In this document: positions 44,888 to 53,920 of the stretch, in pieces
Layout of the letters: the number at the start of each line of letters is the position of its first letter
How positions within the stretch are numbered: position 1 is the stretch's first letter
Assembly: GCA_051874955.1 (NCBI GenBank)
Contig: JBJEGJ010000055.1
Coordinates: 127,094-191,093 of the forward strand
Source: Candidatus Gastranaerophilaceae bacterium
Lineage (GTDB): Bacteria; Cyanobacteriota; Vampirovibrionia; Gastranaerophilales; Gastranaerophilaceae
Reading direction: 5' to 3'
DNA: 64,000 nucleotides
Notes under the pieces: generated by a model
What the model was told of the DNA's origin: nothing
Seen by the model: the letters and a program-made list of their open reading frames with translations, nothing else
Database searches by the model: none
Translations under genes and position numbers: made by a program

Positions 44888-46927
44888 GTGAATAAAACAA
44901 TGAAGAAGGTTAAGAAAAGTAATAAGTTATCAGCGGCACTCCTGATGATTTGTGCATTATCCGTATCATCTGCTACAGGCGCTTATGCTGTGGGTGAGGG
45001 TATGGTCGGAACTGCAGGAAATGTGAATGCAGGTTTCGGTTATACGCACGGTATGATTCCTGTAATGAATGAAGTTGGTGGTACGACCATTCACGATAGA
45101 GATATGATGCGTTACGATAAAAATCGCCGTCAGAGTGCAGATGATTATTATCAATATGAACAAAAACGCTATGGTACAGGTGGTTCACCTGTTACAAATT
45201 ATGCCCCGCCGTCAATGTATCCTGATGTTATGAAGGCAACTGTTGATGAAGTTGGTTCAAAGGGCGTTTATGTAAATTCGATTGAGGTTTCGCCGTCTGA
45301 AATTCTTACAAGGGACGAAATCAATATGATTATCGGTCAATATGTCGGTCGTAACGTGTTTATGTCCGATATTCAACAGGCAATAAACGCGATTAACAAT
45401 TTATATGCAGAAAAAGGTTTTGTTACCGCAAGAGCATATCTTCCGGAACAGACCGTATCTAACGGAAATATAAGAATTGAACTTATTGAAAGTAAAATAG
45501 GTTCAATTACTGTTCTTAATAACAGATATACGACAGACAGATATATTTTAGATCGTATGCCTCAAGAACCGGGTGATTTGTTTGATATTGTTCACTTAGA
45601 GCAGGATGTTCTTGATTTTAACAGATATCATGACGGTGTAAACTTATCTGCAAACCTCAGAGCAGGTCAAATTCCCGGAACAACTGATATTGAATTGACT
45701 GCGGCAGAAACATTCCCGTTCCACTTAATCGGTATGATGGATAATGCGGGTCGTAGAAGTACAGGACAATTGAGAGGCGGTCCTGCTTTGGTTGCTGACA
45801 GTTTATTCCACCACAGAGATCAATTATCAATGGGTGCGTATATGTCAAAAGGTGCAACAAGCCCGTTCTTTGATTACAGTTACCCTATAAACAGAAAAGA
45901 CGGCAGAATCGGATTTACCTATTCTTCGACTTTTGCAAAAATTAAACACTTAGACAATCCTGTAGCACAACAGATTTTCGGTAACAGATTAAAGAGTTAC
46001 TCATATTTATACAGCTTGTACTATGATCAACCAATTGTAAGAAAAAGAGGCTTTGAATTAAAGACATTAGCTTCCTTGAATTACAAACGCTCAAGAACTT
46101 GGTCAACTACGGGAACTTTAATAGATGATTATATGAAAGACACCGATCAAGTTACAAGTATTGATTTGGGACTTAATATGAGAAAAGATACCAAGTATGG
46201 TATTTGGTATTTAAGTCAGGCAGCATCTATGGCTATTCCTATATTTGACAGCGAATCAAGTTATTTCAAATTAAGTGGTGGCTTATTGAGATTGCATGAC
46301 TTTTCTCACGGTATAATCGGTCAATTACGCGGTAGTTATCAGGTAATACCTAACAGCAAACATATTCCTTATTTGGATCAATTCCAATCAGGTGGTTTGG
46401 CTACTGTTAGAGGTTATTCCGAAGGTGTTATGCTTGGTAAGAGCGGATACTTCTTCAGCGGTGAATTGATGTTCCCTCTCGGACCGAGAACATATACAAA
46501 TAAAGACGGATATACTCGTAATTTTATCGGTAACTACTTGAAAGGTGCAATATTTGCTGATACAGCGGGTGTATTCCCTTATGTCGGAGAAGATGTTTAT
46601 AACGGAAGTTATTTCTTGGCATCTGTCGGTATGGGTGTAAGGGTTCAATTACCGGGTGACTTAAGTGCTCGTTTATATTGGGGCTATCCGCTGATTAACA
46701 ATGCTTATGAAAATCACAGACACATGGGCAGATTCCACTTTGATTTGACACTTGAACCTGATTTTGGTGCATTGTTGGCAAAACGCTCAACAAAAGCTGA
46801 ACCTGCTCCGCAGCAGCCGGCTCCGCAACCACAGCCGAAGTTAGCTCCTGTAGAACCTGTGCCGAATAACTATGATGATATCAGACACTATGACTACTTG
46901 TTAGACGGTTCTGCAACATCATTATAA
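44888..46927 (+). CDS. ShlB/FhaC/HecB-type (TpsB) outer-membrane transporter with POTRA domains
   Basis: Signal peptide, POTRA segments (IELIESKIGSITVLNN, LEQDVLDFNR) and a beta-barrel ending ...FHFDLTLEPDF. A 53-aa P/Q-rich tail follows the barrel. Confidence 0.8.
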   Translation: MNKTMKKVKKSNKLSAALLMICALSVSSATGAYAVGEGMVGTAGNVNAGFGYTHGMIPVMNEVGGTTIHDRDMMRYDKNRRQSADDYYQYEQKRYGTGGSPVTNYAPPSMYPDVMKATVDEVGSKGVYVNSIEVSPSEILTRDEINMIIGQYVGRNVFMSDIQQAINAINNLYAEKGFVTARAYLPEQTVSNGNIRIELIESKIGSITVLNNRYTTDRYILDRMPQEPGDLFDIVHLEQDVLDFNRYHDGVNLSANLRAGQIPGTTDIELTAAETFPFHLIGMMDNAGRRSTGQLRGGPALVADSLFHHRDQLSMGAYMSKGATSPFFDYSYPINRKDGRIGFTYSSTFAKIKHLDNPVAQQIFGNRLKSYSYLYSLYYDQPIVRKRGFELKTLASLNYKRSRTWSTTGTLIDDYMKDTDQVTSIDLGLNMRKDTKYGIWYLSQAASMAIPIFDSESSYFKLSGGLLRLHDFSHGIIGQLRGSYQVIPNSKHIPYLDQFQSGGLATVRGYSEGVMLGKSGYFFSGELMFPLGPRTYTNKDGYTRNFIGNYLKGAIFADTAGVFPYVGEDVYNGSYFLASVGMGVRVQLPGDLSARLYWGYPLINNAYENHRHMGRFHFDLTLEPDFGALLAKRSTKAEPAPQQPAPQPQPKLAPVEPVPNNYDDIRHYDYLLDGSATSL

Positions 46928-46953
46928 TTGACAAAATCTTTTTGAGATATAAT

Positions 46954-46982
46954 ATAAGCGGTAACATTATGTTACCGCTTAT
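46954..46982 (+). terminator. Strong hairpin after the TpsB gene / before bioD
   Basis: ATAAGCGGTAACA/TGTTACCGCTTAT 13-bp stem with loop TTA, followed by the T-rich tract TTATTT. Confidence 0.65.
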
Positions 46983-47003
46983 TTATTTGAAAGGTATGTA
47001 TTT

Positions 47004-47690
47004 ATGGGATGTAAATCAGTTTTTATAACTGCAACGGGTACAGATGTAGGAAAGACTTACTTGTCTGCATTGTTGGTAAAAAAGATGCGTGACTTGGGGT
47101 ATAATTGCGGTTATTATAAACCGGCTTTGAGTGGAGCTATACGACAACAAGACGGAACACTTTTACCGGGTGATTGTGATTATGTTATTTCGACTTCCGG
47201 TTTGGGGGTTGAACCGTTATCTTGTGTCAGTTATTGTTTTGAGGAAGCGGTATCTCCTCACCTTGCGGCACATCGTCAGGGGGTGCAAATTGACAAGGAA
47301 ATCATAAAAAAAGATTATTCGGCTAAAGCTGAAATGTTCAATTATTTGGTTGTAGAGGGTGCGGGCGGAATTACTTGTCCATTTAATTTGGATAATGAGA
47401 AAATCTTGCTCCCTGATATTATTAAATCTTTGAATTTAGATATTTTGATTGTTGCAGATGCGGGATTAGGAACGATTAATTCCGTTATTTTGACTGTTGA
47501 ATATGCAAAATCAAATAATTTGGCGGTTAAGGGAATAGTGTTAAACAATTATGATGAAAACAATTTTATGCACGTTGATAATAAAATTCAAATTGAGCGT
47601 TTGACGGGTATAAAAGTTGTTGCAGAAGTTGGAAATGGTGATAAAGAATTGAATATTTCAACAACTGATTTGTTGGAAATATTTGGTTAG
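47004..47690 (+). CDS. bioD: Dethiobiotin synthetase
   Basis: FITATGTDVGKT P-loop and the VVEGAGG motif. Confidence 0.9.
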   Translation: MGCKSVFITATGTDVGKTYLSALLVKKMRDLGYNCGYYKPALSGAIRQQDGTLLPGDCDYVISTSGLGVEPLSCVSYCFEEAVSPHLAAHRQGVQIDKEIIKKDYSAKAEMFNYLVVEGAGGITCPFNLDNEKILLPDIIKSLNLDILIVADAGLGTINSVILTVEYAKSNNLAVKGIVLNNYDENNFMHVDNKIQIERLTGIKVVAEVGNGDKELNISTTDLLEIFG

Positions 47691-47713
47691 TTTCAGAGAA
47701 AGAAGGTATAATA

Positions 47714-49063
47714 ATGAATTGGCAGGAAGAAGATTTGAAATATATTTGGCATCCTTGTTCTCAGATGAAGGATTACGAAACTTTGCCGCCGATTGTGGTT
47801 GATTATGCGCAGGGCATAAATCTGTATGATATTGACGGAAATTGTTACAAAGATGTTGTATCTTCTTGGTGGTGTAATTTATTGGGGCATTGTAATCCGA
47901 GAATTAATGCGGCAATAAAAAAACAGTTGGATACGTTGGAACACGTTATTTTTGCTAATTTCACCCACAAAACTGCCATTACTCTTTGTCAAAAATTGAT
48001 AAAAGTTTTGCCAAAAGGTTTGTGTAAGTTTAATTTTGCAGATAACGGTTCGGCTGCGATTGAAATGTCTATGAAGATGAGTTTTCAATATCATCAGCAA
48101 ACCGGTAATACTCAAAAGAAAAGGTTTATGGCATTGACAGATGCTTATCATGGCGAAACGATAGGAGCTTTGTCTGTTGGTGCTTGTGATTTATATTCGC
48201 AGATTTATAAGCCGATTTTGATGGATGTTGTTCGGGTAGAGGGACCGGATTGTTTTAGATGTCCTTATGGCAAATGTCGTGATAATTGCGCTTGTGAGTG
48301 TTTTGAAAAAGCGGAAAAAACTTTTGCCCAATATGGTCAGGAAACGTGTGCGATGCTTGTTGAACCTTTGTTGCAAGGTTCTGCGGGTATGAAAATATAT
48401 CCGCCATTGTATTTAACGAAATTACGTGAGCTTTGTGACAAGTATAATGTGCATTTGATAGCGGATGAAATTGCTACAGGATACGGAAGGACGGGGAAAA
48501 TGTTTGCGTTTGACCATGCCGGAGTTTCACCCGATATTATGTGCCTTTCAAAAGGTTTGACAGGCGGTTATATGCCAATGTCTATTTGTGTTACAACTCA
48601 AGAAATTTATGACGCTTTTTATGATGATTATGGCAAAGGTAAGGCTTTTATGCACAGCCATACTTATGCGGGAAATCCGCTTGCTTGTTCTGCGGCAATA
48701 GAGGTTTTGAACATTTTGGAAGATGAACAAATTATTCCGAAAGCGGTAGAAAATGCCAAGTATTTTAATAAAATTATTAATGAAAAATTTGCAGATTTGC
48801 CTAATGTTGGGGAAATCCGCCATATCGGCTTGGTTAATGCTATTGAACTTGTTAAGGATAAAAATACGAAAGAGCCGTTTTCGTCGTCTTTGCGTTTAGG
48901 GTATCAAATTTATAAGCGCGCCTTAAAAAAAGGTGTACTGTTGCGCCCATTAGGAGATGTTATATATTTTAACCCGCCGTTGATTATTCAGCCTGACGAT
49001 ATGGATTTTGTAATGGATGTTGCAAAATCTTGTATGATTGAGGAATTAAATTCTATGTTGTAA
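47714..49063 (+). CDS. bioA: Adenosylmethionine-8-amino-7-oxononanoate aminotransferase
   Basis: HIWHPCSQM N-terminus, class III aminotransferase with DEIATGYGRTG and the PLP lysine context LSKGLTGGY. Confidence 0.93.
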   Translation: MNWQEEDLKYIWHPCSQMKDYETLPPIVVDYAQGINLYDIDGNCYKDVVSSWWCNLLGHCNPRINAAIKKQLDTLEHVIFANFTHKTAITLCQKLIKVLPKGLCKFNFADNGSAAIEMSMKMSFQYHQQTGNTQKKRFMALTDAYHGETIGALSVGACDLYSQIYKPILMDVVRVEGPDCFRCPYGKCRDNCACECFEKAEKTFAQYGQETCAMLVEPLLQGSAGMKIYPPLYLTKLRELCDKYNVHLIADEIATGYGRTGKMFAFDHAGVSPDIMCLSKGLTGGYMPMSICVTTQEIYDAFYDDYGKGKAFMHSHTYAGNPLACSAAIEVLNILEDEQIIPKAVENAKYFNKIINEKFADLPNVGEIRHIGLVNAIELVKDKNTKEPFSSSLRLGYQIYKRALKKGVLLRPLGDVIYFNPPLIIQPDDMDFVMDVAKSCMIEELNSML

Positions 49064-49109
49064 TTCTGAATAATCTGTGGAATGACTGGCGCGCTAATTT
49101 TTTTTGAAC

Positions 49110-49795
49110 ACTTCTGTCACACTAAACAAGCCGAGCAGAGGATGAAAGCGTAGGCGTATCCGTTTAATGCGAGGCGCGTTTCAGGGTCTCCAAACACATG
49201 TGTCATCCTGAACTTGTTTCAGGATCTTACCGTTGGTGTATTTTGCTATGTTTTTAAAGATCCTGAACAAAACAAAATCTACGCAGTCAAGTACGGTGGG
49301 CAGAAATGAAATAATGCCCACCTATTTATGCAAATAATTTAAATTTGTTGGCACTATTGGTGTATTTTGCTAGGTTTAAAGATCCTGAAATAAATTCAGG
49401 ATGACAAACGCGTTTTATATTTGAGTATTCCATACCATGTCACCCTGAACAAGCCGAGCAGAGTACAAAAAGTCAAACACATGTGTCACCCTGAACTTGT
49501 TTCAGGGTCTAGTCTATTGGTAAAATCTTGCTAAGTTTAAAGATCCTGAAATAAATTCAGGATGACAAACGCGTTATATATTTGTGTATTTCATACCATG
49601 ATACCCTGAATAAGTCGAGCAGAGTACAAAAAGTTAAACACATGTGTCACCCTGAACTAGTTTCAGGGTCTAGCCTATTGGTAAAATCTTGCTAAGTTTA
49701 AAGATCCTGAAATAAATTCAGGATGACATACGCGTTTTACCATAGTACACCCTTTTTTCATGTCATGCTGAACTTGTTTCAGCACCCCTAACAAG
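49110..49795. repeat. Mosaic array of hairpin-containing repeat modules (about 161-bp unit and variants)
   Basis: Unit starts (GATCCTGAAATAAATTCAGGATGAC) lie at 49381, 49542 and 49703. Hairpins GTCA(C/T)CCTGAACTTGTTTCAGG(G/A)TC lie near 49202, 49485 and 49646, with GTCATGCTGAAC..TTCAGCAC at 49762. Confidence 0.9.
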
Positions 49796-49846
49796 TAAGT
49801 CGTCCCGACCTCAAAGCTAAACATTTACAATAACTTATATAGCTAT

Positions 49847-50635
49847 TTATGGGGCATAATTTCCTGTACAATATTTTTTGTTGCCTTTTACGCAACGTAA
49901 ATAATTTAAATTTTTATGTTTAATTACGTATCCTGCACAGGTTGTTCCGCTCCACCAACCGGCACTTCCTTCGTATTCGGGGTTACATCCTTTTTGTTTC
50001 TGCCAGCCAACATCTCCGTATGGAACAATTCCTCTATCAAGGATAGCGAATACAAATAAGTCTTCTCCCCAACGTGGTCTGTTTGTTTTTCCTGTTACAT
50101 TGACCATTATTGTGTGTGGTGTTGCCATTTCTGTGCCGTTGATATAACAACCTCCGTCCCCATTACAATCTCTTGTTTCTGATAAATATGTAGAAAAGCC
50201 ACCGGTGTTGTCAATGTTAATGCGGGTAGTATTTCCGATAATAATATTATATGGAACACTAACATTAGTATTTTTACCTTGTAAATCAAGATGCATTATA
50301 GATTTTTCACATTTGACCTTATCCCCATCGCATACTAAATAGCTTTTTATGTATGGCAGAAACTTCTCCATTATCATTTCTCTTGAAGTATTCTTATCTG
50401 TTGGTAAATTCCAACAGCTTATAGGTCCGTTATCTTCAATAGACATTTTGTATCCTTGACTTAGTATTGAATAAACTTCCAGTAATTTATTAACTATAAC
50501 TTTCTCTTTGTAAGTGTTGAGTAATGTAGGTATTGTTAGTGCTGCAACGATTCCAATTATTCCAATGGTAATAAGAACTTCTGCAAGCGTAAATCCCGTA
50601 TGATTTATTTTGCACTTGTTAAATATATTTATCAT
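49847..50635 (-). CDS. Prepilin-type N-terminal cleavage/methylation domain protein (type IV pilin/pseudopilin-like)
   Basis: Class III signal HTG|FTLAEVLITIGIIGIVAALTIPTL. The C-terminal domain is Cys-rich, with the motif VNVTGKTNRPRWGEDLFVFAI. Confidence 0.8.
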   Translation of the reverse strand: MINIFNKCKINHTGFTLAEVLITIGIIGIVAALTIPTLLNTYKEKVIVNKLLEVYSILSQGYKMSIEDNGPISCWNLPTDKNTSREMIMEKFLPYIKSYLVCDGDKVKCEKSIMHLDLQGKNTNVSVPYNIIIGNTTRINIDNTGGFSTYLSETRDCNGDGGCYINGTEMATPHTIMVNVTGKTNRPRWGEDLFVFAILDRGIVPYGDVGWQKQKGCNPEYEGSAGWWSGTTCAGYVIKHKNLNYLRCVKGNKKYCTGNYAP

Positions 50636-50687
50636 ATATTAAGTTTATTTTATAGTTAAATCATTGTCAAGTTTATAAAATATTGAT

Positions 50688-50900
50688 ATGGATAAGAGAT
50701 TGAAAATATTAGGTTTGAATATAAAATTTGCCAGAATAAAAAAGGGGTTGTCTCAGGAACAGCTTGCTGAGAAGGTAGATTTATCCAGAACGGCAATAAG
50801 TTTTATAGAAACAGCTCGACAAAATCCAACTATTCTTAAAGTAATTGATATTGCTAAAGTTTTAAATGTTGATATAAATGATTTAGTAAGGGATGTTTAG
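50688..50900 (+). CDS. XRE-family helix-turn-helix transcriptional regulator (70 aa)
   Basis: The HTH_3 signature is LSQEQLAEKVDLSRTAISFIETARQNP. Confidence 0.85.
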   Translation: MDKRLKILGLNIKFARIKKGLSQEQLAEKVDLSRTAISFIETARQNPTILKVIDIAKVLNVDINDLVRDV

Positions 50901-51029
50901 TTTTTAGAGTCTGATTTACAAAGCTGACATTTAACATTTTTGTAAGGATAATAACAGCAAGCTGTGTAAGTTCGCTTTACAAAGTTGAGAAAATTTTATA
51001 CCTAGTAAATTAGGAAAACCCTGATCAGA

Positions 51030-51725
51030 CCTCACCCTAACCCTCTCCTATCTTAGGAGAGGGAAGAATAATAGTTAAGTAGTGTAGACTTTAGTCTACC
51101 GATACTAAACCAAAAGATCCTGAAACGAGTTCAGGATGACAAACGCGTTATATATTTGAGTATTTTATACCATGATACCCTGAATAAGTCGAGCAGAGGA
51201 TGAAAGCGTTAGCGTATCCGTTTAATGCGAGGCGCGTTTCAACATCTCCAAACACATGTGTCACCCTGAACTTGTTTCAGGGTCTAGCCTATTGGTAAAA
51301 TCTTGCTAGGTTTAAAGATCCTGAAATAAATTCAGGATGACAAACGCGTTATATATTTGTGTATTTCATACCATGATACCCTGAATAAGTCGAGCAGAGT
51401 ACAAAAAGTTAAACACATGTGTCACCCTGAACTTGTTTCAGGGTCTAGCCGTTGATGTTTTTTGCCATGTTTTTCAAGATCCTGAACAAAACAAAATCTA
51501 CGCAGTCAAGTACGGTGGGCAGAAATGAAATAATGCCCACCTATTTATGCAAATAATTTAAATTTGTTGGCACTATTGGTGTATTTTGCTAGGTTTAAAG
51601 ATCCTGAAATAAATTCAGGATGACAAACGCGTTTTATATTTGTTATAGCCGAGCAAAGCAGGGTAGGCTTTAGTCTACCGCAACAAAACCAAAAGCTTCG
51701 GAAACAAGTTCAGGATGACATGTGG
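51030..51725. repeat. Second mosaic array of the same repeat modules plus other small hairpin repeats
   Basis: Module starts lie at 51116, 51317, 51478 and 51600. Also present are CCTCTCC..GGAGAGG (51044-51063) and GGTAGACTTTAGTCTACC-type hairpins (51084-51101, 51663-51680). Confidence 0.9.
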
Positions 51726-51797
51726 GCAAAACTACTTTGTCTTCTCTCATATCTCAAAAAAAATGTAACGAAATGTTACAATATATGCTTGTTTTTC

Positions 51798-51824
51798 TAA
51801 AGTTTTACCGAAAAATGCCGTAAT
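51798..51824 (+). promoter_or_regulatory. Sigma-28 (FliA)-type promoter
   Basis: TAAAGTTT (51798-51805), an 11-nt spacer, then GCCGTAAT (51817-51824), 48 nt upstream of ATG 51872. Confidence 0.65.
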
Positions 51825-51871
51825 CATGACTAAGCAAAGAATGACTATATGTCGAAAGGATTACGAAAAAA

Positions 51872-53920
51872 ATGGGATTGGCAGCTTCACAAGCTAGATT
51901 TTTATGTATAACGGCAAGAAAAGCTGATTGTGAATACAAATCAACTGAACTGGCTCAGCAAAAGCTTGAGATTACAAATCAGTTGTCAACAATTTCTAAT
52001 GAATACGCCAATGCCATGAATGCAACAAAATTGGTTTGGTCAAATGATGCTGTTGATAGGGATTATGGCTTGACATACAGTCTTATGATGACACCTTCTG
52101 CAATAAATGATTACAATCCTTATATGTTGACATCATCATCAGGCGCAATTATTTTAAATAGTGAATATGCAAACGCTGCGCGTGCTGCCGGTATCTCAAA
52201 AGCAGGCGGTGCAGGTTCGCAAGCTTCACGTGATAAGTTTATTCAAGCATTAGTTCCGGGCGGTATCGTTACGCAAGAAACTGCGGATAATATTACCTCT
52301 AATGATTATCGTGTATCTATTAAAAACAACGAGATAAATATTGTAGAGGGAACTGAAGCTAATGGCGCTATTATGTGGAATCCTGCAGCAGGTATGGGGG
52401 CAGATCCGCTTAATAAATCCATTGTTGATGCAATGAATTTAGTAGACTTGGCTACCAGCGAAAATATCGGTCAACAATTAGTTGACTGGGGACAATTATT
52501 TGTCGGTGAAGGTCAGATTACAACCATTGAGTACGATAGAAATCTTGAGAATTTACAAGATTTGTATAAAGATTCAATTAATAAAAAAATATCAAATGAA
52601 ATAATTTCACAATTGCAAAATGATAAAGCAAGTTTTGAATCAACGCTGGCAAATCCTGAAAAACCTACTACTGAGGAGCAGAAAAAGCTCGATGAGTTTG
52701 ATAAATTGATTTCTAATGCAAAAACTATTTTAGCAGGCAAGGTTTCTGATGACGGATACTTGCTTGATTCTTCAGGAAATAAGACCTCAACTACCTTAGA
52801 TGCTGCCTACACAGCTATATCTGATCAGTTAAAAAATGACTATGAATCCTATAAAACGAAATATACGGATGAGAATGGTAAGCCAAATAATAAGCAAGTC
52901 GGTCTTACAGATAAATTTAATACTAAAGATAATTCTTTAAAAACAGCTACATATTCAATGGTGCAAAATGGCAGTATTAACCATTATTCGTCTGAAATTG
53001 AAGAATTAACAATTGGTGATATTTTAACATCAAATATTGTTTTAATGGCGAACAGTAATATTAGTATGACTGATTTCCAAGAAGATGTTAAAAAATTATT
53101 TGATTCTATTGTAGAGGTTTTAGGGTATTCAACAACCAAAAATTTAAGCGGTACAGGTTTGAATATTGATGATGCCTCAAGACAGGCTTTAGAGTTTGCT
53201 TATAAGATGACATTGCCGTTGTTGAAAAATGATAAATGTCAAACAGGTTCAAGAAAATCCGACAAATCCATGACAGAAAACAGCGCATATATGAATGCTG
53301 AAAAATATAACGGTATTGTTTCTGATGAAGATGAGGGCAAGGGTTATAAAGGTGTCAGCTTGACCAACTTGCTTGCTACATTTTTAACTTATTATGATAA
53401 CGGTTTGAATGGTATAAATTCTAATTACGTTATTGGTGCAACAATTGATACGTCAGATTATGTAACAGACGACTACGGTTATTATTATATGGCACAAAAT
53501 GATTCTGATGCGGTTGTTTCAATGGCAGCAAGAAGTGCCGATTTCTTTGACCAGTTATACAACAATATCTGTGAACACGGTTGGAGAGAAGATGCACAGG
53601 TTGATGATTATGAATATCTTGAAAGCGCGATAAAAGACGGTCGTTACTCAATGAGTTCATTAAATCAAGACGGATATTTTTATCAAACAAGATACAATGA
53701 AACAGGCTATATTATAGAAGAATCAGATACCGATGCAATTGCCCGAGCTGAAGCAGAATTTACTTCTAAAAAGGCAGAGCTGACTTATAAAGAAGATTCA
53801 ATTGATATTAAAACAAAACAACTTGATGCTGAAATATCTTCATTATCAACGGAATATGATACAGTAAAACAGTTGATTTCAAACAGTATTTCAAAAACCT
53901 TCGCATTATTCCAAAACTAA
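51872..53920 (+). CDS. Conserved-termini / variable-core protein (682 aa), MGLAASQAR family; putative filament subunit
   Basis: The first 9 aa are identical to the 36571 product and the C-terminal 32 aa are about 45% identical. The ~570-aa core is N/S/T/D/Y-rich. There is no signal peptide or TM segment. Confidence 0.75.
   Translation: MGLAASQARFLCITARKADCEYKSTELAQQKLEITNQLSTISNEYANAMNATKLVWSNDAVDRDYGLTYSLMMTPSAINDYNPYMLTSSSGAIILNSEYANAARAAGISKAGGAGSQASRDKFIQALVPGGIVTQETADNITSNDYRVSIKNNEINIVEGTEANGAIMWNPAAGMGADPLNKSIVDAMNLVDLATSENIGQQLVDWGQLFVGEGQITTIEYDRNLENLQDLYKDSINKKISNEIISQLQNDKASFESTLANPEKPTTEEQKKLDEFDKLISNAKTILAGKVSDDGYLLDSSGNKTSTTLDAAYTAISDQLKNDYESYKTKYTDENGKPNNKQVGLTDKFNTKDNSLKTATYSMVQNGSINHYSSEIEELTIGDILTSNIVLMANSNISMTDFQEDVKKLFDSIVEVLGYSTTKNLSGTGLNIDDASRQALEFAYKMTLPLLKNDKCQTGSRKSDKSMTENSAYMNAEKYNGIVSDEDEGKGYKGVSLTNLLATFLTYYDNGLNGINSNYVIGATIDTSDYVTDDYGYYYMAQNDSDAVVSMAARSADFFDQLYNNICEHGWREDAQVDDYEYLESAIKDGRYSMSSLNQDGYFYQTRYNETGYIIEESDTDAIARAEAEFTSKKAELTYKEDSIDIKTKQLDAEISSLSTEYDTVKQLISNSISKTFALFQN

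Follow-up and report, generated by a model that had tools for sequence, protein, structure and literature searches.

Hairpin-repeat mosaics around a divergent XRE/pilin-like gene pair in a gut Melainabacteria genome

We analyzed a 64,000-nt stretch of DNA (the window, G000:C55:127094-191093) from a Candidatus Gastranaerophilaceae genome, here called G000, a gut Melainabacteria assembly of 1.97 Mb in 58 contigs with 34% G+C. Between bioA and a gene for a 682-aa protein, the window carries two intergenic repeat arrays that enclose a two-gene cassette, made up of a gene for a prepilin-type (pilin-like) protein and a divergent gene for a regulator of the XRE family. Our analysis suggests that the arrays are probably hairpin mosaics of an Ssn-related type, organized like NIMEs and BIMEs, that surround a conserved XRE/pilin-like module and act as recombination substrates without a transposase of their own. 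Such mosaics are a known phenomenon in a new host and not a new kind of element. An earlier note on this DNA had described mosaic arrays built from common modules in permuted order around the prepilin-like and XRE genes, and our module maps agree with that description (Table 1).

The 25-nt hairpin and a GIY-YIG nuclease

All of the long modules center on an oriented 25-nt hairpin of the form GTCAY-CCTGAA-N5-TTCAGG-RTC, which reads GAY-CCTGAA-N5-TTCAGG-RTGAC on the other strand. Its core has 12 matches in the window, all of them at this locus (0.66 expected by chance). A copy count across the whole genome, as the earlier note had proposed, returned 221 exact oriented copies (260 with a relaxed stem), and blastn found the arrays to be multi-copy. 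The hairpins are predominantly intergenic, with 227 of 235 copies lying outside predicted genes, and they are clustered: 226 copies fall in 78 of the 1443 intergenic regions, compared with 186 ± 5 under a length-weighted null, a distribution unlike the uniform scatter of single hairpins that the note had also considered. About 70 hairpin clusters in G000 are comparable to the two arrays described here, and both hairpin orientations are present at every array.

The hairpin stem is kept by compensatory changes. Among the 260 copies, the variable stem pair is T-A in 188, C-G in 68 and mismatched in only 4, and 26 copies carry GC/GC in place of CC/GG. Folding, another check that the note had put forward and that we ran for single-stranded DNA (ssDNA), gave -6 to -7 kcal/mol for a single hairpin, with z-scores of -3.6 to -4.1. 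In the common doublet, two inverted hairpins at a distance of 32 nt fold together into a single long hairpin (z-scores of -4.3 to -4.8). The exact 25-mer occurs in more than 120 public genome stretches, from Patescibacteria, Sphingomonadaceae, Bacteroidota, Treponema and others. A literature search by the letters of the hairpin returned no paper, and a search of the literature on Melainabacteria pilins found nothing on these repeats. Similarly, an Rfam search of the window gave no family at the gathering score, and a loose E-value returned only generic long-hairpin microRNA models far below threshold.

Ssn proteins are small single-domain GIY-YIG nucleases that cut ssDNA beside an oriented hairpin repeat (Chenal et al., Nat Commun 2025, PMC11893778). 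These repeats, named NTS in Neisseria and SRM generally, occur in hundreds of copies, cluster around genes and flank the nuclease gene (PMC11893778). G000 contains a 95-aa GIY-YIG open reading frame (ORF; G000:C39:282-569, minus strand; PF01541, 56.5 bits), and inverted copies of the 25-nt hairpin bracket it, at 0 nt from its 3′ end at the stop codon and 30 nt from its 5′ end at the start codon. Its assignment to the SsnA kind (cd10448) is based on the PF01541 score together with the hairpin flanks of its relatives. A search of solved structures with this 95-aa protein gave nothing significant, and NCBIfam has no specific model for it.

To characterize these flanks, we checked 600 nt on each side of 80 nuclease relatives from many phyla (53-90% identity). 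A CTGAA-type hairpin is found within this distance in 44 of the 80, and a further 18 are flanked by hairpins of the published SRM pattern, several of which are the literal Neisseria NTS core, GTCATTCCCGCGCAGGCGGGAATCCA. Canonical NTS core flanks are carried by relatives at 53-65% identity. A GTCAY form upstream combined with an inverted copy downstream is likewise seen in 44 of 80 relatives. The median distances are 30 and 16 nt, respectively, and the proportion is near the 42% reported for the flanked arrangement in PMC11893778. Comparing G000 with 40 related genomes (41 in all), we found that hairpin presence is associated with nuclease presence (22/9 versus 2/8, odds ratio 9.8, p 0.008), with the caveat that related genomes are non-independent samples. 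Hairpin copy number across these genomes ranges from 0 to 221, and of the seven genomes that have 20 copies or more, six contain the nuclease gene. Because the G000 nuclease gene is bracketed by this hairpin, and its relatives by the same hairpin or by the literal NTS, we consider the repeats, as judged from sequence, to be a variant of the Ssn-related hairpin motif.

Other repeat families contribute to the mosaics. A further version of the hairpin has an extended loop, in which a fixed 50-nt segment, AAGCCGAGCAGAGGATGAAAGCG..GCGAGGCGC, splits GTCACCCTGAAC from GTTTCAGGGTC; about 24 copies of this form exist genome-wide, and the connector of the 161-nt unit is a truncated copy of the extended-loop segment. 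A second hairpin family, CTCACCCTAACCCTCTCC-N7-GGAGAGGG, has about 120 copies genome-wide and is often found at array edges. One of its members is included in the right array, beyond the modules first described for this locus. Elsewhere in G000, hairpins repeat every 52/53 nt in two minisatellite-like arrays, one with 12 units and the other with 18 (G000:C2:49479-50114 and C58:9374-10401), and are joined by near-identical linkers. Each of the two abuts a pilin-like gene, and the C58 array holds a run of N, the assembly not being closed there. We rejected a reading of these 52/53-nt arrays as CRISPR because their 27-28-nt "spacers" are not unique and instead are near-identical between units.

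The single RAYT transposase of the genome (G000:C5:141-686, locus L065; NF047646, 125.7 bits) is flanked by a REP of its own, GTAGGGTGCAATTTTTTGCACC, with about 12 copies, and directly adjoins another divergent XRE/pilin-like pair. Considered as the driver of the main hairpin, this transposase was set aside because its flanking REP is another sequence. Only the 122-nt module contains a hairpin that loosely resembles the RAYT REP, GTACGGTGGGCA..TGCCCACC.

The two arrays, the cassette and the empty site

The two arrays share a direct repeat that is identical over exactly 167 nt, with identity stopping at both sides (49257-49423 and 51476-51642). For modules of the left array, the best genomic matches lie in the right array (232 nt at 96.6%, 202 nt at 99%, 134 nt at 99.3% and 109 nt at 90%), and all other genomic copies are at most 91% identical to the array modules. 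The 134-nt match corresponds to the near-identity that had already been noticed between the 161-nt units at 49542-49702 and 51317-51477. Because the arrays are each other's best matches, they appear to be related locally and not to have been built independently from the genome-wide pool. Eight differences between them cluster directly to the left of the 167-nt identical core; together with the permuted module order, these show later change. Two routes could account for this relatedness. A duplication may have placed a copy of one array on the far side of the cassette, as could follow from a single crossover between an array in the chromosome and incoming DNA that bore the cassette with an array segment, or ongoing gene conversion between the neighboring arrays may have homogenized both. 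We infer that a step of array duplication or gene conversion took place. The 167-nt identical direct repeats could also suffice for a deletion of the RecA type, after which a single hybrid array would separate bioA from the 682-aa gene.

The enclosed cassette encodes a protein with the features of a type IV pilin or pseudopilin: a G/F-x-x-x-E motif followed by a hydrophobic helix, with PF07963 above its cut-off. The prepilin motif reads HTG/FTLAEVLITIGIIGIVAALTIP (N-terminal methylation motif G/FTLAE) and is accompanied by a Cys-rich DUF6613-type domain; PF20318 is a precomputed annotation on this protein and on its relatives. The pilin-like paralogous family is very large: 33 matches were counted in G000, and some relatives exceed 60. 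No close orthologue was found in the 40 related genomes (best match, 38% identity), and wider metagenomes contain orthologues at 56-70% identity.

These orthologues show that the gene pair can be found in other settings. In one of them (locus L216), the cassette lies between dapB and asd, with a pilin-like protein 69% identical and a 70-aa XRE protein 84% identical to those of G000. DNA similarity to this cassette spans both genes and the 52-nt control region and ceases a few tens of bases past the stop codons; a TTGACA-17-TAAACT site that faces the pilin-like gene is conserved in it. Other orthologues (60-63% identity; L217-L220) lie in the interval from etfA to purA and are paired with a different XRE protein of 101 aa, whose best match in G000 partners another pilin-like gene (comparison with G000:C2:51079-51537). 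Since XRE types are swapped among pilin-like orthologues, regulator and pilin-like gene have been re-paired in evolution. The orthologous cassette contexts contain no hairpins and consist of 74-102-nt spacers with housekeeping-gene neighbors, so the two-gene unit is older than, and independent of, the arrays.

Within G000, there are nine divergent XRE/pilin-like pairs, five of which are embedded in hairpin arrays; the modules beside the gene ends vary among these five. More generally, hairpins are enriched next to pilin-like genes: 9 of 34 have one within 400 nt, and the corresponding figure for other genes is 89 of 1681 (p 7e-5, odds ratio 6.4). The arrays beside pilin-like genes are mostly at the 3′ end of the gene. 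At a second cassette locus (on C2), the flanks are found on different contigs in the five relatives compared.

We also observed that three pilin-like genes that each lie beside hairpin arrays (G000:C2:50254-51009, C17:834-1628 and C41:42459-43220) are identical in their first 35 residues. These genes look like recent duplicates.

Orthologues of the 682-aa gene are found throughout the genus, and among 20 related loci only that of G014, the nearest sampled relative and a different species, keeps bioA beside it. The order in G014 is tpsB-bioD-bioA, followed by 12 nt, a conserved promoter element (AATTGTAACGAAATATTACAA) and the 682-aa gene. In G000, this promoter element begins at 51761, which we take as the right edge of an extra block because the G014 counterpart starts 12 nt past the bioA stop codon. 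The G014 junction lacks the block, and therefore ~2.7 kb (49064-51760) were either gained in G000 or lost in G014. The comparison of cassette presence between relatives that the earlier note had called for thus yields a block here and none at the orthologous junction of G014. The G014 genome has zero hairpin copies and no Ssn-like gene. No target-site duplication is found at the boundaries that G014 defines.

The left conserved anchor, bioA, is the final gene of a skp-tpsB-bioD-bioA block. Of four other sister lineages with bioA at 88-90% identity, three keep this block, and what lies downstream of bioA differs each time; these four 13-kb sister loci contain no hairpins. Because the gene after bioA differs in each of the five sister lineages, position 49063/49064 of the window represents a recurrent synteny breakpoint. 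A search for a conspecific strain found none: the exact bioA and pilin-like proteins are present on only one other contig set, from one sample, and the next closest bioA outside that sample is 91% identical. An independent short-read (Logan) assembly of one sample breaks inside both arrays, with contigs that correspond to window positions 45560-49183 and 49708-51055.

Mechanism, alternative explanations and known systems

Together, these findings are consistent with a locus of two layers. One is a conserved two-gene module of ~1.2 kb transcribed divergently from its common 52-nt control region. The other comprises the flanking intergenic mosaics, assembled from the 25-nt hairpin, its extended-loop form and two other small palindromes, which are probably the Melainabacteria counterpart of the NTS/dRS3 mosaics (NIMEs) of Neisseria and of REP/BIME clusters. 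The hairpins have expanded in this lineage, and this may have happened by a hairpin-directed process on ssDNA tied to the nuclease, with the 161-nt unit also being duplicated locally. If Neisseria (PMC11893778) is taken as a guide, the nuclease would recognize the hairpin GTCATCCTGAACTTGTTTCAGGATC in ssDNA, and the arrays would influence recombination of the enclosed genes by providing homology tracts as well as cut sites on incoming single strands. Arrival of the cassette, or its loss in the relative, would have occurred by ordinary recombination and not through a transposase of its own, and the flanking arrays would now be recombination substrates permitting deletion or gene conversion. In comparing the locus, the cassettes and the G014 junction, we found no evidence of a dedicated mobility mechanism of the block. 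The Neisseria analogy further suggests that the arrays may modulate integration of incoming ssDNA and act as transcript boundaries, the latter role being a weakly supported possibility.

Several observations weigh against this interpretation. The published SRM pattern, HGTCWYN(0-2)YYVSBRHN(0-5)WNVSBRGN(0-2)RNCYNB, matches no CCTGAA hairpin and has 2 matches in the genome, compared with 1-2 in Markov-1 random genomes. Because the pattern misses the hairpin, which retains the common frame GTCAY-stem-loop-stem-RTC, we describe the hairpin as a putative variant of the SRM class and not as a match to the published motif; its cutting by the 95-aa nuclease is a prediction by analogy. The genome also encodes a RAYT with its own REP, which could contribute to repeat dynamics. 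Arrays bracket argS, lpxA and several genes of unknown function as well, which makes the association with pilin-like genes a tendency instead of a rule. There is a single informative empty site, and it lies in a different species; because the bioA 3′ junction is a general breakpoint, gain here and loss in the relative both fit. Finally, since the Logan assembly breaks inside both arrays, it is the contig of the metagenome-assembled genome (MAG) that carries the linkage across them.

We also considered a stronger version, in which the arrays and the GIY-YIG nuclease would form a gene-exchange control system for the many XRE-regulated pilin-like surface genes of gut Melainabacteria. The arrays might mark an incoming single-stranded cassette for cutting by the nuclease, with protection or biased replacement as the outcome, or they might drive reversible deletion and re-insertion of the cassette through their long identical repeats. 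If true, such control would give each strain a shuffled repertoire of surface proteins, but we regard it as quite unlikely.

Rather than acting in recombination, the arrays could be selected mainly for a role in RNA or transcription, as terminators, mRNA stabilizers or insulators keeping bioA, the divergent cassette and the sigma-28-driven gene apart from one another, with the link to recombination being incidental. The layout of the locus is suggestive in this respect: at the left array, the pilin-like gene and bioA point toward each other, the XRE gene reads into the right array immediately before an independent promoter, and arrays near pilin-like genes are mostly 3′. The hairpins are also stable, with covarying stems, and one hairpin followed by a T-run scores as terminator-like. 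This single terminator-like site, however, compares with 1.6 expected by chance, and a T-run is missing from most hairpins. Every array contains hairpins in both orientations, 7-18 hairpins per array far exceed what termination needs, and the same junction in G014 makes do with 12 hairpin-free nucleotides. Furthermore, exact conservation of the hairpin across phyla and the flanked nuclease gene indicate a protein-DNA system, and we therefore find a primarily transcriptional role unlikely. A different possibility is that cassette and arrays together constitute a discrete mobile element, whether a composite transposon, one bounded by miniature inverted-repeat transposable elements or an excisable circle, with the 167-nt repeats or the hairpins as its ends. 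The absence of the entire block from the G014 site, the direct repeats on both sides of the cassette and the near-identical pilin-like paralogues at C2, C17 and C41, each beside arrays, would all be expected of such an element, and the short-read assembly graph fits a deleted chromosome plus a 2219-bp circle equally well. Against it, the boundaries defined by G014 show no target-site duplication, the modules at the gene ends differ among the five array-embedded cassettes with no fixed terminal inverted repeats, orthologous cassettes sit hairpin-free among housekeeping genes, set off by spacers of 74-102 nt, and neither a transposase nor an integrase is encoded in the block; a mobile element of this kind is very unlikely. 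The same evidence qualifies the recombination-mediated gain or loss suggested by the earlier note, which is favored by the mutual best matches of the arrays and their 167-nt direct repeat but finds no target-site duplication or conserved ends.

Breaks of the Logan assembly at 49183/49708 and 51055, a 167-nt perfect repeat longer than usual k-mer sizes and the many MAG contigs that start or end in arrays raise the question of whether a cassette from elsewhere was joined here artificially through identical repeats. In that case, however, one would not expect eight differences to the left of the core and different module orders, which indicate that the arrays were not collapsed. The modules are mutual best matches, unlike other genomic copies and as expected of neighbors, and a 204-kb contig runs through both arrays. 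We consider an assembly artefact highly improbable, and favor recombination-prone hairpin mosaics around a conserved module as the explanation of the locus.

Among known systems, the mosaics resemble most features of the Ssn/NTS-SRM pairing described for SsnA of Neisseria meningitidis (PMC11893778). Both have a small GIY-YIG gene bracketed by inverted, oriented GTCAY...RTC hairpins, and hundreds of hairpin copies that are nearly all intergenic and clustered around genes; in both, copy number varies widely between sister species and tracks the presence of the nuclease, and relatives of the G000 protein carry literal NTS core flanks. In contrast, the stem here is CCTGAA/TTCAGG with a 5-nt loop, which the published SRM pattern misses, and the host is a gut Melainabacterium, belonging to a group unmentioned in PMC11893778. 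NIMEs, as Parkhill et al. 2000 is cited in PMC11893778, are intergenic segments of ~30-110 nt bounded by short palindromes, a description that the present arrays share. According to the same citation, their modules are reused in different orders, as in both arrays and at other loci here, and they lie preferentially beside surface-protein genes and have been proposed as recombination substrates (here, pilin-like genes are enriched with an odds ratio of 6.4, but argS, lpxA and many unrelated genes are bracketed too). As far as that account describes them, NIMEs differ in their bounding repeat (dRS3, ATTCCCN8GGGAAT, compared with CCTGAA-N5-TTCAGG) and phylum, and in that the arrays described here also hold tandem 161-nt and 52/53-nt units and the 50-nt extended-loop hairpin form.

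Similarly, the REP/BIME elements and RAYT-associated REPINs of enterobacteria and pseudomonads are extragenic palindromes arranged in mosaics, with inverted doublets that fold as one hairpin, and G000 itself encodes a RAYT flanked by its own REP. Unlike those systems, the main hairpin is not the RAYT-flanking REP, lacks a GTAG head and is associated with a GIY-YIG nuclease gene instead of a Y1 transposase. The BOX repeats of Streptococcus pneumoniae (boxA-boxB(n)-boxC) are alike in being modular, mix-and-match intergenic repeats with a variable number of internal units; they have no sequence relation to the present arrays, which lack fixed start and end modules. With about 70 such clusters in the genome, argS and lpxA among the bracketed genes and a known Neisseria pattern of NTS/dRS3 and Ssn, the organization cannot be called unusual, as the earlier note had it. 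What the locus adds is an extension of the Ssn-nuclease/hairpin pairing to non-photosynthetic relatives of cyanobacteria, through a CCTGAA-stem variant that escapes the published search pattern yet recurs letter for letter in many phyla. In addition, a filled site can be compared cleanly with an empty one, next to a family of genes that has undergone huge expansion in these gut bacteria. Should the arrays indeed direct how surface-protein cassettes are gained, lost or exchanged, strain diversity in an uncultured gut lineage would become easier to explain.

Feature map and minor observations

The features of the locus are collected in Table 1. The repeated DNA on the right reaches slightly beyond the end first assigned to it, and the right array spans 51010-51735. 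By genome-wide blastn, the DNA is single-copy at 49064-49109, 49790-51010 and 51740-51871. According to Tandem Repeats Finder, 2.3 copies of a unit with a period of 161 nt make up 49367-49736, with 94% matches. Hairpin orientations in the left array alternate (- + - + - + -).

Table 1. Features of the array-cassette locus in window coordinates
Feature	Position	Strand	Evidence or remark
bioA, class-III aminotransferase	47714-49063	+	PF00202, 349.7 bits; 91% identical to G014 orthologue
Single-copy spacer 3′ of bioA stop	49064-49109	+	Copy depth 1, genome-wide blastn
Left mosaic array	49110-49790	.	All 20-nt bins multi-copy in genome (blastn)
Left array: extended-loop ("insert", split) hairpin	49116-49191
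Left array: plain hairpin	49202-49226
Left copy of 167-nt identical direct repeat	49257-49423	+	Exact match to 51476-51642
Left array: 122-nt module	49259-49380		REP-like hairpin GGTGGGCA..TGCCCACC
Left array: two 161-nt units	49381-49541 and 49542-49702
Left array: partial unit	49703-49790
Prepilin-type protein, 262 aa	49847-50635	-	PF07963, 24.5 bits (cut-off 21.2); PF20318 precomputed annotation
Shared 52-nt control region, divergent promoter-like sites	50636-50687	.	Promoter scan, 10/12 matches; strong conservation in the L216 cassette
XRE-family helix-turn-helix (HTH) regulator, 70 aa	50688-50900	+	PF01381 (HTH_3), 62 bits; divergent from pilin-like gene
Single-copy cassette tail 3′ of XRE stop	50901-51009	+	Copy depth 1
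Right mosaic array	51010-51735	.	Multi-copy DNA, genome-wide blastn
Right array: hairpin module of second family	51020-51066		CCCTCTCC..GGAGAGGG
Right array: GTAGAC hairpin	51085-51100
Right array: 201-nt unit	51116-51316		Extended-loop hairpin with 40-nt insert (hairpin 51175-51250)
Right array: 161-nt unit	51317-51477
Right copy of 167-nt identical direct repeat	51476-51642	+
Right array: 122-nt module	51478-51599
Right array: partial unit	51600-51735		Degenerate hairpin
Conserved promoter and leader of 682-aa gene	51761-51871	+	Aligned with G014 empty site
682-aa gene, right conserved anchor	51872-53920	+	71% identical to bioA-adjacent G014 orthologue

Despite 34 prepilin-type ORFs, G000 has no match to Peptidase_A24 at E <= 0.001. 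Of 12 relatives from the genus, seven gave a match; six of these matches scored 20-25 bits and stayed below the cut-off, which G012 alone exceeded (28.8 bits). Clear matches were obtained in other families of the order. The prepilin peptidase of the genus is thus probably very divergent and not absent.

Many G000 contigs begin or end within hairpin clusters, indicating that the arrays fragment the assembly. In practical terms, such arrays break up short-read assemblies and also yield spurious small ORFs. Two small open frames on the minus strand (49181-49321 and 49675-49824) cross hairpins and contain the peptides ..ILKQVQDD.. and ..VLKQVQHD.. Nuclease ORFs of Novosphingobium and Sphingomonas also extend into hairpin-encoded peptides (MLNLFQH.. 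and ..DAETSSA). Small frames that cross hairpins are likely sources of spurious "hypothetical proteins" in databases.

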